The notes: generated by a model not told the origin, from the sequence alone. 64,000 bases of DNA from Piedraia hortae CBS 480.64 (GCA_010093745.1 MU005966.1:69628-133627); one strand, 5' to 3'; positions 55,062 to 60,372 are shown, counted from the stretch's first letter. A program made the numbers and translations.

Positions 55062-57220
55062 ATGCCTCGTCGCTCTGCAGATGTTGATGAGGCGATCAAG
55101 AAAAAGGGCGGCCTTACCAAAGAGCAGCTAGAAGCCTACGACGATGTCTGCACGGATGCGCTCGTGGATCGCGTAAGTGTGTTTGCTGCGGGAGATCCGC
55201 AATATTGACAGCGCAACAGGTCTACTTCTGGTCCACTATTCGTAAGATGAATGACAAGCGCCATCCCAGCCGTGGAGTTCGTGAGGAGAGCGTGTGCGAC
55301 ATTCTGCGAAAGTTTGTCATTAACGAAAAGGATCCTGCGACTGCAAGCCAAGAGCTCCTCAAACAGCCCGGCTTGAACAAGTTCCTCAACTCGCTGAAGA
55401 CAGACGTGGAGAAGGACTATTTTCAAAAGCACCTGCGGAAATACATCAACATCTACCTTCCAGACTGCCCTTTCGAGGTGGGCACCACTAATCGTTACAC
55501 AATCTCCAACGCTGAAGCCGCCATTTATGCAAGGCGCAAGCTCAAGCGTGGCGAGGTTATTAAGTTTCTAACCGGCATTCAGGTGGAGATGACAGAGGAA
55601 CAGGAGGAGAAGCTCACGGTCCTTCAAGGTGACTTCAGCGTGGTCATCTCAAGTCGTAAGAAGAGGCCCTGCATTTTCCTCGGACCTGCTCGCTTTGCAA
55701 ACCATGATTGTGACCCCAACGCTCGTTTAGACACGTCTGGTACCCAAGGACTGCACATTGTGGCCACTAAAGACATCGAGATTGGCCAGGAGATAACCGT
55801 TTCGTACGGCGAGAATTATTTCGGTACCGATAACTGCAACTGTCTCTGCGAAACGTGTGAGAACAAACAGATAAATGGCTGGGATCCGCGTGGCCCATTG
55901 ATAGAAGACAGCAGTGACGAAGAAAGCGAGAGCGAAGAGGTTCATCAGAAGAAAAGTGAGAGTAGACTCAGGACGAGTGAGCGAGGCAAGGCTGCAATGG
56001 CACCAGCACCCCCGCCACCAAAGAAGAAGTCCAGTTTAAAGCGTAAACGAGGCGAGGAAGCTCCAGCTTCGCCCTGTCAACCGTCTGAAACTTCCAATGA
56101 TGCGTCAACGGACAGTGGCGGGCTGCCCAAGAGGGCACGTGGTCGACCTAGGAAACATCCCAAGAAAGACAACGGAGAGAAGAGAGGACGTGGTCGGCCC
56201 AAGAAAATTCTAGGTGAAAACAATGGAGAAATACAACAGGTGCTCCTTCGACAGACCACTGTTAACACATTGCCACGATCTGGCCTGATGAGCAAGCTTA
56301 GAACCTTTCTTGGCAACGTTGTATCTAGCTTCGATTCACCTTTAACAACAAACACGGAGGAGCGTGACACCGGAAGGATCACTCGATCTTCCAAAAGGAA
56401 GATGCAGGCTACCATGGAAGTGGAAATCCCAACAAAGCGTGTGAAATACAAGCAGAGCGTCTCAACACTACGCCGAGTTGCGTATAGGAAGGACGATGAA
56501 CCTGCCCTAACTCGGCCCAGACGGAGCAGTCGGCACCTAAAAGCCATTTCTGGCGTCTCCACTCCTGCATCAGCCCCTAGTACGGATATTTTCTCCCGTG
56601 GGTCGCTGGCTTCGAGTGCGACGTCCATGGAAACCCGTTCTCAGTCGAAAGCTGCGGCGAAGGTACGCGAAGTGGTCACAACTAAAGTCTGTAAAGAAGA
56701 GGAAGTCGTACCGCTCCGACGGGGACGTTCGGCGAAGAAGCTAGGAACATCAACAATCATGATGTGCAGCATCGAAACAACCAAGACCGGTGCATCCAAG
56801 GAGAAACGCGGGGAACCTCGAGCGCCAGGTGACTACTATCTATGCCAGGCGCTGCTTGCCAGTGCTTATCACCGGTGGGTACAATGCCGAAACTGCGATA
56901 AGTACTTCGTTCAAGATTGCGCTTACCACACCCGAATCGGATGCCCCCGGTGTGAGCGTCATAGCAAATTATATGGCTACCACTACCCGAAAACAGACAA
57001 GGAAGGCAAATGGGACCGGGAAGAGCGGGTGGCTGACCACCGCACGATCAATCGTTTCATTGATCCTGAAGACGAGCGGATGGAGTTCAGGGGCCGCAAA
57101 GCACTGGAACAGCTCCGCATGCAGGCTGCGAGCAGGTCCGTAAGCACAGAGGTGCGGAGGGGCAGTGATTCTCATCCCAACGAACGGAGGAGGTGTCTAA
57201 GGCGCAGGTCAGGTCTATGA
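55062..57220 (+). CDS. SET9: Histone H4K20 methyltransferase Set9 (Suv4-20); intron 55173-55219
   Basis: DDVCTDALVDR|VYFW, LGPARFANHDCDPN, EITVSYG..FG..CLCETCE, AT-hook-like RGRPRK, and C-terminal CRNC..CPRCERHSKLYG. Confidence 0.93.
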
Positions 57221-57376
57221 CAGGATGGCACTTTTTTAAGTAATCGTAATGACAATGGGGGACGTGTATGAAGACCGTTTAACAGTTAATTAATGAATGC
57301 AGTGATGCTGAACAAGATTGACATAAACAGTTGGGTATCATGGACAGTACTAACACCTAGCTTGAGGCTCTCCGAA

Positions 57377-58035
57377 CTACCGCGAGCGATCCAAGGTGGA
57401 CCACTGATGGCGGCAATTGACACAGACGAAGAACAGGGCCTGGTCCAGGTCAATGCATGCAAGATAGTTGACGATGTTGAACCTACCATGCCAGTTTCCT
57501 TGGTTCTCTGTTGGCTTTGGAAAAAGACGGCGTCGCAGGTGCCGCACTTGGCGCAGGGTTCTGCATCGGTATGCGGGAGCTAGAAAACAGTTTAGCGCCA
57601 TCTAAGATGTCGCATTCGCGGACTCCACTTCAACAGGCTCGGAATCCTCTTCTATCTTCGGATCAAGAACCTCCAGTACGACTCCGTTTTCCGTTGGTCT
57701 ATCACAGCCAGGACACAAGATATCGCGCCCGCAGAGAGTGCAGAACAATAAATCACATACCGTTGGATCATCGGCGACATCTTCAATGTTTCCAGCCGTC
57801 TCCTTAATTTCCTCCTTGAGTGAATTGCGGTATACGCACGCAGACTCGGCCGGTTCGCTTGAGTTGCAGTTGCGGCACATGAACATTAGCTGACTGTTAA
57901 TGTCGTCCTCACGCGGGTAGAGCATGTTTGAGCTATGGCAGGGTTAGACGCGTTGGAAAACGGGAAGCGCACAACGTACCATTCGCGACAAAAGCGGAAG
58001 CTGACCTTTTGCGTCTTGTCGGTTGGATCTTCCAT
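57377..58035 (-). CDS. RPB9: RNA polymerase II subunit Rpb9; introns 57933-57979, 57580-57760, 57440-57486
   Basis: FRFCREC|SNMLYPRED..CRNC..DPT|LPHTDAEPCAKC..AVFFQSQQRTKETGM|ALFFVCVNCRHQW. Confidence 0.93.
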
Positions 58036-58403
58036 TGCGACGAAATTGAGATTGTGGAGGTGAGGAATGAAGTCGCAGGCGCGGCGTCAGATTTTCCCAC
58101 AGTGGGGCAACCACGTGCATCGGACATTTTTGTCATCTCTGTTTCGCGGCAACTCTCCGCTGACCAGATCAGATAAATTAGCGCTTTTCGTGAATGCTAA
58201 AATGTTTCACAACATTCATGCCAGGAAGCATGTACGACAACAAACAACAATGCAGAACTAATCACGTCATTTCCCTTGCCCACCCGTTCGCTCGGAAGCC
58301 ACGTTTCGCATCAAGGGTCGGCCCGAGCCTCCTCCCTTAGCCTGCTCCCTAGCCTGCTCCCCCACCTTAGGCAGATCTTGAGTTCCACACTCGCACAAAC
58401 ATC

Positions 58404-59179
58404 ATGGTAGGTACCCGTCGCCCTGAAGAGATGGATAGCTGATAGTTACAGGCTACCGGACTACCCGCTGGTCAGTCAATGAGTAATATTTTCGTCTATC
58501 AACTAACCCCTTGTAGGATGGGAAGTTAGGCATTCGAACAGGCATGCCGCGCAAATCATTTATTCATAAACTGTCTAACCTTTCTCCAGCAAAAACCTTC
58601 CGTACTACTTCAACAACCAAACCAAGGAATCGCAATGGGAGCCCCCCGCCGACACCGATAGCGAGACGCTCAAGCACTACATGGGCCAGTATCATACCGC
58701 TAAGAGCGGTCCGACGTCTATTGCCCCTACTAATCTCGAGGGCAAAATTCGTTGTGCTCACCTGCTGGTCAAGCATAATGGCTCGCGTCGTCCATCCTCG
58801 TGGCGTCAGGCTAACATCACCCGTTCAAAAGATGAGGCCATGAACACGATCAAAAGCCACGAGAGCAAGATCAAATCGGGCGCTACCTCTCTGGGCGATC
58901 TCGCCGCGCTGGAAAGTGACTGTAGTTCTGCGCGTAAACGTGGCGATCTGTGAGTTTCAGCCATTGGAATAATGGAGGTAGCTGATTTTCATCCAGCGGC
59001 TTCTTCGGTAAAGGCGACATGCAAAAGGAGTTTGAGGATGTCGCTTTTACTCTCTCGCCTGGCGAGATCTCGGGAGTGGTTGAAACCGCGTCGGGGTTGC
59101 ATCTCATTGAACGGTTTGTATTCAATCATTGTCACCCTTGGTTCGGGATTTACTGACTTGTTGCTTCAGTCTTGAATGA
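58404..59179 (+). CDS. ESS1: Parvulin peptidyl-prolyl isomerase Ess1/Pin1 (WW + PPIase); five introns, one with a GC donor
   Basis: M|ATGLPA|GWEVRHSN|SKNLPYYFN..WEPP; IRCAHLLVKH..SRRPSSWR; ESDCSSARKRGDL|GFFGKGDMQKEFE..SGLHLIER|LE. Confidence 0.93.
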
Positions 59180-60372
59180 GTGTGCATAATGAGTGTGTGT
59201 CATTGGAGGCTCGTCCATATGATGTCCTTTGCTGCGTATATTCCGCCGGTATGATCGTTTCATGACCAGTGCATTCTATCTTCGTTTTCTTCTGCCATTG
59301 TCAAGTCCAGGTTCTACTTGGATAGTGCATTTCAAAGTTCTTTCAGATGGACATTCACTCGTCACTTGATAATCATGATGTTGAGTAGCTGCATTGAATA
59401 ACTGTCTATTTGGGAGGCAGATGTCGCGAATCTAAAGGAGTGGACATGAGAGCTCACAAAATCAGGTTTGACAGCTCTATGTCGGCTTCCTTTGAACAAA
59501 CATCTGCACTGTTTCGAAACATTTGCCTCTTTTACAAATTCGCAGTCGTTGACTCAAACGGCCGCGGAGTGCTTATCTTACTCACTAAGTGAAGTGCAGT
59601 TCGATCTTGTGGCGTTGGCTATTCTGATGCAAATTCTATCAATCATAATCCATTAAGTGCGCCTAGTCCAGTACGCAACTGGAACGTGAGGTTGCTCATC
59701 GTGTATTTGGAAGAAGCTGCAAGTAATTCTCAAATTGTTTTCCCAACGTCATATGAATATTTTAGAGGATTTGTTTTGCATCTTGTTCCGCTCAATTCGG
59801 AGGGAAGTATTCCTTCTCTTGATGAAGTTTACTTGAGGAAAAGAGTTCGTCTAGTCCGAACTTGTGGAGAACGTAGTAGGAGTATATTCCCGAATGCGTT
59901 CTCCGTAGGTTGTGAGTTTTGGTCATGGGCCTTGGTGGATGGATATATCGTTCTGCGGGTTGTGTGCGGGGTGATAAGGGAGGAAGTGGGCGAAGAGACA
60001 TCTTGGAAAGCTTTTGATATGGGTGGGAGGTGTTAGGCATGGCAAAATTGCGTGTGTACTGAAGTTTTGTCAATTCATGAAATTTGCGATTGTTGGTTTC
60101 TTCGGCTCGAGTTAGACATGGACAGACTGGAATTGGGATGTTTTCCTGTGCACGTCTGATCAGGAATGGGAGCGCTGTAATGAATAGAGTAGCCACGATG
60201 CGATGTGCTTTTGCATCTCCCTAAACGCCACTCTTAAATGTAGACGGCTGGTCATGAGGGTTTTGAGAAGCATTTGAAACACTATCATTCGAAGAGATGA
60301 CGCATCGTTGCTATGGAGCCCTCCGTAAAGTTGCTTCGAGGCACTAGAAGTATGCCACAGTGGTATTCTGCC

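Follow-up and report, generated by a model that had tools for sequence, protein, structure and literature searches.

Fungal genes that yield a second protein by alternative splicing have been described in two cases close to the present one. The PTC7 gene of budding yeasts has a translated retained intron that gives a second isoform and is replaced by duplicate genes in some species (PMC3597508 and PMC7491326), and an old alternative splicing event at SKI7/HBS1, widely conserved in fungi, produces two functionally distinct proteins (PMC3597508). The same paper treats conserved or proteome-diversifying alternative splicing as rare in fungi. The RPB9 gene of Piedraia hortae CBS 480.64 resembles PTC7 in that conserved intron retention would lead to a second protein from one fungal gene and can be recognised because the intron's ability to code has been kept in evolution. 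At PTC7, translation continues through the intron and into the following exon, whereas the RPB9 frame ends inside the intron, so that a C-terminal domain would be swapped instead of a segment being inserted; RPB9 also differs in its occurrence in Pezizomycotina and in encoding a core subunit of RNA polymerase II (Pol II), and replacement by duplicates is represented here by two candidates only (P0126 and P0156). Unlike SKI7/HBS1, which uses alternative 3' splice sites and has two functions proven by experiment, RPB9 relies on intron retention, and we infer the function of its second form.

The spliced product of the locus is a textbook Rpb9 (POLR2I) with both the N-terminal zinc ribbon (PF02150) and the TFIIS-type C-terminal ribbon (PF01096). 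The variant comes from the same gene, lacks PF01096 and ends instead with 13 residues of Cys core and then an acidic tail, neither of which has a counterpart in Pfam or among solved structures. Pol II is commonly regarded as an invariable assembly of twelve subunits, and the C-terminal zinc ribbon of Rpb9 is linked to start-site selection, fidelity, the response to TFIIS and transcription-coupled repair. Variants of the ninth subunit and of its TFIIS-like ribbon are found in plant NRPB9a/b, A12.2 of Pol I, C11 of Pol III and TFIIS, which are duplicates that keep the TFIIS-type ribbon. The likeness to these paralogs is that a polymerase would be tuned via the C-terminal module of an Rpb9/TFIIS-like subunit; in contrast to them, RPB9 would make both forms from one gene, and hhalign detects no relationship between its alternative module and the ribbon (probability 10%). 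For Schizosaccharomyces pombe, PMC13300194 states only that rpb9 has four introns. A literature search for an RPB9 intron-retention isoform found no description, most subscription journals being outside its scope, and a conserved alternative C-terminus of a core Pol II subunit is thus apparently undescribed, as far as we searched.

The gene occupies positions 57,377-58,035 of the window, by which we mean the whole stretch of 64,000 nt analysed (GCA_010093745.1 MU005966.1:69628-133627), and is encoded on the minus strand. A taxonomy look-up places P. hortae in the Dothideomycetes, order Capnodiales. In the features below, P0001 denotes exon 2 plus the extension without exon 1, and P0004 the NCBI model of the canonical protein in this strain.

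57980..58035, minus strand: coding part of exon 1, with ATG at 58035-58033, 18 codons plus 2 nt, and the first CxxC of the N-terminal zinc ribbon
57932/57980, minus strand: exon 1/2 joint, joined in an RNA-derived contig
57933..57979, minus strand: intron 1, 47 nt, GTACGT..TAG, contig depth zero
57761..57932, minus strand: exon 2, the remainder of the Zn1 ribbon and the linker, ending ..DVADDPT; PF02150 match on P0001
57580..57760, minus strand: intron 2, 181 nt, GTATGT..TAG, alternatively retained and proposed as a 'coding intron'
57579/57761 (spliced joint) and 57551-57790 (unspliced contig), minus strand: evidence on intron 2 from RNA-derived contigs
57605..57760, minus strand: putative intron-encoded alternative C-terminus, 52 codons in frame with exon 2, with homologous extensions at 78 loci and in 121 other proteins
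57704..57742, minus strand: Cys core CTLCGRDILCPGC, residues C64-C76 of P0001, core dN/dS 0.00-0.36
57605..57676, minus strand: acidic tail of the extension, 24 residues with 8 D/E and 1 K/R, predicted disordered
57602..57604, minus strand: TAG stop of the retained-intron isoform, within intron 2 and 22 nt 5' of the acceptor
57487..57579, minus strand: exon 3, LPHTDAEPCAKCG..FFQSQQRTKETGM, first half of the TFIIS-type C-terminal ribbon; PF01096 match on P0004
57440..57486, minus strand: intron 3, 47 nt, GTAGGT..CAG, contig depth zero
57377..57439, minus strand: coding part of exon 4, ALFFVCVNCRHQWSTLDRSR plus TAG

Scripted joining of the exons gave a product of 127 aa identical to P0004. Exon 2 closes with GAT CCA ACG (DPT, last base 57761), and reading on in frame gives VCDLLFCTLCGRDILCPGCDRPTENGVVLEVLDPKIEEDSEPVEVESANATS, 52 codons followed by the TAG at 57604-57602. 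The retained-intron product has 128 aa and a single stop, shares its first 76 residues with canonical Rpb9 and spaces its four additional cysteines as C-x2-C-x5-C-x2-C (C64, C67, C73 and C76 in P0001 numbering). The original prediction had given this intron 181 nt, against 41-50 nt for most introns of the window, and had described a read-through of about 52 codons after ..DVADDPT with a CxxC-x5-CxxC motif and an acidic tail; length, coordinates and sequence were all exact. RPB9 introns 1 and 3 and one intron of a neighbouring gene measure 47 nt each, and all of them show up as joints of RNA-derived contigs. Our main reading, to which we give a probability of about 0.8, is that intron 2 is a conserved, alternatively retained coding intron that provides one gene with two mutually exclusive C-termini. 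Splicing of intron 2 would give canonical Rpb9 of 127 aa, with N-terminal zinc ribbon, linker and TFIIS-type C-terminal ribbon. If intron 2 is kept while introns 1 and 3 are removed, translation would run from exon 2 through the 52 intron codons to the stop within the intron, and the predicted variant of 128 aa would carry the N-terminal ribbon and linker as far as DPT, then a Cys knuckle (CxxCG-x4-CxxC) and a disordered acidic tail.

RNA forms were assessed in a single run (X1) from one sample, available as contigs only and not recorded as RNA, which we mapped over 56400-59400. The contigs leave out five stretches of intron size. Four of these, among them the three RPB9 introns, have GT..AG ends; the fifth measures 48 nt and has non-canonical ends. 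Given these splice-like skips at GT..AG, we took the run as RNA-derived. A contig with the spliced junction 57579-57761 (depth 359.6) occurs beside a 240-nt contig that covers 57551-57790 unbroken and with zero mismatches (depth 219.1), so that, as had been proposed, intron 2 is retained in part of the RNA. The two depths sum to 578.7, near the 569.1 of the upstream exon contig. Bin depths at introns 1 and 3 (304.3 and 137.4) correspond exactly to exon cover alone, hence both introns are without cover, and the intergenic stretch 59127-59400 has zero X1 contig cover; the intron-2 contig is therefore not explained by contaminating DNA. Retention comes to about 38%, a rough figure since contig depth is a poor measure of level. 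As at PTC7, spliced and unspliced mRNA are both present, here as contigs of run X1. A fraction of the intron-2-retaining RNA could be nuclear pre-mRNA, and the retained-intron mRNA could be a target of nonsense-mediated decay because 115 nt separate the alternative stop from the exon 3/exon 4 junction downstream of it.

Conservation was examined in proteins and in metagenome contigs. A first protein search with P0001 returned five matches, two of them canonical models (P. hortae and Acidomyces richmondensis) and three ORFs called in prokaryote style on fungal contigs, which continue from exon 2 without a break. All three share (M/F)C(T/M)LCG.EI with the window, and two of the three also share the second CxxC (..CP.C.(K/R)PT.N..(A/V)LE..DP). 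An alignment of these relatives, with the extension in the query, was used to scan metagenome contigs, and we analysed the best 80 of 147 confirmed stretches; the ranking favours extension-bearing lineages, and the counts that follow do not measure prevalence. Two of the 80 loci (L025 and L027) are spliced, cDNA-like contigs with the canonical join and the other 78 bear the intron. In all 78, exon 2 ends with DPT followed by GT. Intron 2 measures 159-627 nt (median 259) at the 61 loci with clean placement of exon 3, which leaves aside 10 loci with a late exon-3 match that failed the acceptor check and 7 at which the contig ended first. The in-frame read-through spans 23-152 codons (median 63) at the 74 loci with a stop inside the locus, covers a median of 0.73 of the intron and always stops before exon 3. 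The intron length is divisible by three at 18 of 61 loci, the chance rate.

CxxC[G/Q] is present in all 65 distinct extensions. The putative C4 zinc motif of the original prediction is there in the window and in 40 extensions, which have four cysteines (CxxC[G/Q]-x4-CxxC), and does not hold throughout, as 17 have three (of the type CLLCG..(V/I).C(E/Q)G(R/K)) and 8 have two (for example CTYCGKDLELEEE), the second CxxC being missing from 25 of the 65. In an alignment of 49 sequences V58 (encoded by the donor GTN), C64 and C67 never vary, and at least 90% of the sequences retain G68 and C73. Beyond the Cys core, the length and sequence of the extension vary widely. The intron is, as at PTC7, open in frame with the upstream exon and conserved across species, and the orthologous introns are open and carry the cysteines, a check named with the original prediction.

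Intron 1 is absent from 15 of the 78 genomic loci, several of them on long contigs, and exon 1 runs straight into SNMLYP there (L042-L046, L048, L049, L057, L060, L064, L069, L072, L074, L075 and L080). We considered whether these loci were transcripts and rejected this, the long genomic contigs among them indicating that the intron is simply absent. Intron 2 is present in 78 of 78, and the comparison suggests that it is protected from loss. Contigs from other species with intron 2 kept and introns 1 and 3 removed could not be demonstrated among the 80 loci.

One protein, P0053, is an ORF call from a 993-nt Logan contig in which exons 1 and 2 are joined (..ISFRFCRECSNMLYP..) and followed by the intron-2 extension. 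It is of a Dothideomycete-like type, for which the genomic loci collected here all have intron 1, and may be a retained-isoform transcript contig from another species.

A profile of 49 ORFs matched 1092 proteins at E ≤1e-10, the best 120 of which were listed in a ranking that favours the extension. Among the 124 proteins collected from best-ranked matches, the extension is present in 122 (114 with four cysteines, 7 with three and 1 with two), and 2 are canonical. They include eukaryote-style NCBI gene models in which exons 1 and 2 are rightly joined, the read-through is taken as coding sequence and PF02150 is the only domain. Examples come from Cladosporium allicinum, C. fusiforme, Pseudocercospora fijiensis, Recurvomyces mirabilis, Cercospora berteroae, Septoria linicola, Lobaria immixta, Pleopsidium flavum, Xylographa soralifera, Caeruleum heppii, Tricladium varicosporioides, Ophiocordyceps unilateralis, Cordyceps sp., Colletotrichum tofieldiae and Sclerophora amabilis. 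The Lecanosticta acicola model also has the read-through, with an exon 1-2 join one residue short (FCRDSNMLYP). Taxonomy look-ups assign read-through models to five classes, Dothideomycetes, Lecanoromycetes, Leotiomycetes, Sordariomycetes and Coniocybomycetes, and our class-level claim covers these five. The open frame and the Cys core are accordingly kept in at least five classes of Pezizomycotina, and the similar extensions in Pezizomycotina gene models that the original prediction mentioned do exist. Public RPB9 annotations in these fungi conflict, some giving the canonical and some the read-through form, and both annotated forms are probably real products.

The 52-aa peptide alone gave zero matches at E ≤10 in a word search of the protein collection, which reflects the sensitivity limit of that search, as whole-ORF and profile queries found many extension-bearing proteins where it had none. 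A profile of the 40-position core, compared with 1.84 billion proteins at E ≤0.001, retrieved 63 representatives, 61 of which are by inspection Rpb9 read-throughs or fragments thereof. The remaining two are P0175, of 1023 aa with seven weak stretches, and P0179, of 186 aa with the pattern ..PSC..CGK.IYC..CG.. in two copies. P0179 has neither an Rpb9 part nor a Pfam family, carries the core-like motif twice (..LPPSCLNCGKRIYCLKCGK.. and ..LSPSCQHCGKKIYCPGCGE..) and matches the core profile at E 2.8e-4; its motif could be a further occurrence of this small module outside Rpb9, or a product of convergence.

Two other ORFs have the Cys core in an Rpb9-like context. P0126 matches PF02150 and continues after DPT without the GT-compatible Val (DPTASAL..), and P0156 has a degenerate linker without DPT and no Pfam match. 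Both are candidate duplicate genes that could be dedicated to the variant form, and if they are, a distinct function of the variant would be favoured.

The substitution pattern indicates that the intron-encoded peptide is under purifying selection. By the Nei-Gojobori method, dN/dS of the intron ORF in the seven independent groups A-G is 0.17, 0.24, 0.09, 0.26, 0.43, 0.06 and 0.25, in agreement with the expectation of values below 1; the divergent group I reaches 0.53 and one pair (H) is saturated. Intron ORF and exon 2 have similar dS, and dN/dS of exon 2 is 0.00-0.17. By part, the Cys core is tightest (0.00-0.36); values are 0.03-0.48 for the tail, where they could be computed, and 0.18-0.73 for the acidic spacer that precedes the core. 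Indel runs were counted pairwise in seven groups, within each of which the pairs are non-independent events: all 282 in the open part have lengths divisible by three, against 54 of 305 in the rest of the same introns. The other five frames over the open part are each free of stops in just 2-21 of 61 distinct loci, and an antisense or other-frame ORF as the conserved object is ruled out by stops in most loci.

The donors of intron 2 are also unusual. Among 65 of them (from L001-L080) we found GTGGGT 26 times, GTTGGT 20, GTTAGT 11 and GTAGGT 4, along with four singletons, and G stands at position +4 in 50 of 65, compared with 4 of 48 intron-3 donors at the same loci, where GTAAG and GTGAG predominate. 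In the window the donor is an ordinary GTATGT. This bias is consistent with a constraint to encode Val-Gly, with a weak donor, or with both, and the unusual donors (mostly GTNGGT, Val-Gly) could together with the intron length plausibly keep splicing partial.

A weak, long intron could also serve regulation alone, with unproductive retention tuning the dosage of Rpb9 through nuclear retention or nonsense-mediated decay and the peptide being functionless. Fungal alternative splicing most often takes the form of intron retention, and the position of the alternative stop, 115 nt upstream of a spliced junction, and the atypical donors with +4 G (50/65 versus 4/48) fit such a role. However, an RNA-only role does not predict invariant Cys codons with freely varying synonymous sites, nor dN/dS of 0.06-0.43 at a dS equal to that of exon 2, nor indels in threes confined to the open part, and we consider it unlikely as the whole explanation. 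Regulatory retention and a coding role are not mutually exclusive, and regulation is a possible additional role of the coding intron.

On the reading that intron 2 is coding, the variant would be translated. The N-terminal ribbon profile PF02150 scores 42.6 bits on P0004 and 26.8 bits on P0001, which is without exon 1, against a cut-off of 25.2. The C-terminal ribbon profile PF01096 scores 45.6 bits on canonical P0004 (cut-off 21) and had no match on P0001, P0047, P0008, P0090 or the 52-aa extension; because it is missing, the variant is a truncated and swapped Rpb9 and not a full member of the family. The extension matched no Pfam family. A comparison of the core profile with solved structures found no homolog, the best value being E 0.09 for LysW, followed by archaeal RNA polymerase subunit P and rubredoxins; we rejected kinship with these as generic zinc-knuckle likeness. 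An origin of the knuckle from a duplicated start of exon 3 (LP..CxKCG versus LP.FCTLCG) was likewise rejected at an hhalign probability of 10%. In the ESM Atlas, the nearest neighbours of the extension were Ascomycota clusters with PF02150 only, at scores of 0.79-0.83, below the significance level.

AlphaFold2 modelling of the full-length variant P0047 with a 51-row alignment predicted the N-terminal ribbon at pLDDT ~90, the linker at ~55, a small hairpin-like knuckle at ~69 (moderate) and a disordered tail, and the picture for P0001 of the window was similar (knuckle pLDDT 67-68). The Cys knuckle probably binds zinc.

In yeast Rpb9, the N-terminal half anchors the subunit and suffices for several functions, and the C-terminal ribbon sits on the Rpb1 jaw. 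The variant would dock on Pol II via its retained N-terminal ribbon and linker, and since the N-terminal half is the anchor and the C-terminal ribbon the jaw part in the yeast work, it should compete with canonical Rpb9 for the same site and would change jaw-linked properties. Part of the Pol II population would then have a jaw without the TFIIS-like ribbon and with a small putative zinc knuckle and an acidic tail. Alternatively, the variant might be translated but work independently of Pol II, as a small, free acidic protein with a zinc knuckle, using the promoter and N-terminus of RPB9. It lacks the C-terminal ribbon that packs on the Rpb1 jaw, its tail is predicted disordered and acidic, and P0179 shows two similar motif copies in a protein other than Rpb9. 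Against this, the N-terminal ribbon and the linker through DPT, the anchoring half in yeast, are not only kept but are the most conserved part of the protein in our alignments, which makes a role away from the polymerase quite improbable compared with docking on Pol II.

A chance open frame in a long, poorly spliced intron, with a coincidental Cys motif and gene models that are annotation errors, has in its favour that automatic annotators prefer long ORFs and that 194 of 5000 dinucleotide shuffles of the window's intron keep at least 52 in-frame codons open. For this reason the 52-codon frame alone is weak evidence. The motif and the comparative data put the feature far beyond chance: an open frame with CxxC-x3-8-CxxC arose in 0 of 5000 dinucleotide shuffles of intron 2, and the same motif, frame and intron position recur in 65 of 65 distinct extensions and in five classes and bear the marks of selection for coding. 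The dS of 0.3-1.3 among the loci speaks against contaminants or copies of a single sequence. We regard coincidence as very improbable. Long introns among short ones are often snoRNA hosts in fungi, but the idea that intron 2 is conserved for a snoRNA or other non-coding RNA, or for a structured splicing element, is hardly credible, as an Rfam scan of 57200-58200 at E ≤10 gave nothing in 57580-57760 and two chance-level snoRNA matches, both outside, the RNA fold energy of the intron is ordinary (z = -0.39), and conservation is codon-like and not pair-like.

As a coding intron, intron 2 would provide a second, selected form of a core Pol II subunit through one retained intron in at least five classes of Pezizomycotina. 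Numerous pathogens of plants and humans, as well as moulds used in industry, belong to the Pezizomycotina. Swapping the C-terminal ribbon is a plausible route to altered polymerase behaviour because the ribbon is tied to fidelity, start-site choice, the response to TFIIS and repair. Speculatively, and with considerable doubt, filamentous ascomycetes might have two kinds of Pol II that differ at the jaw, with the splicing ratio of this intron as a switch for fidelity, TFIIS/TFIIE responsiveness, repair coupling or dormancy. The acidic tail, anchored beside the downstream-DNA channel, would then possibly mimic DNA or recruit factors. If so, this would be an ancient regulatory layer common to at least five classes, which yeast models cannot reveal since yeasts lack the intron.

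Two neighbours of RPB9 were seen in the window. A SET-domain ORF (PF00856, E 2.2e-12) of 709 codons at 55091-57220 on the plus strand is convergent with RPB9, which ends at 57377 on the minus strand. An unbroken RNA-derived contig, 56400-57438, spans the 156 nt between the two stop codons, thus the 3' ends of the two genes abut or overlap. On the plus strand, 58723-59126 reaches a contig depth of up to ~5000, about 10 times that of RPB9, and includes a 47-nt GT..AG intron (58950-58996); it looks like a highly expressed neighbouring gene.
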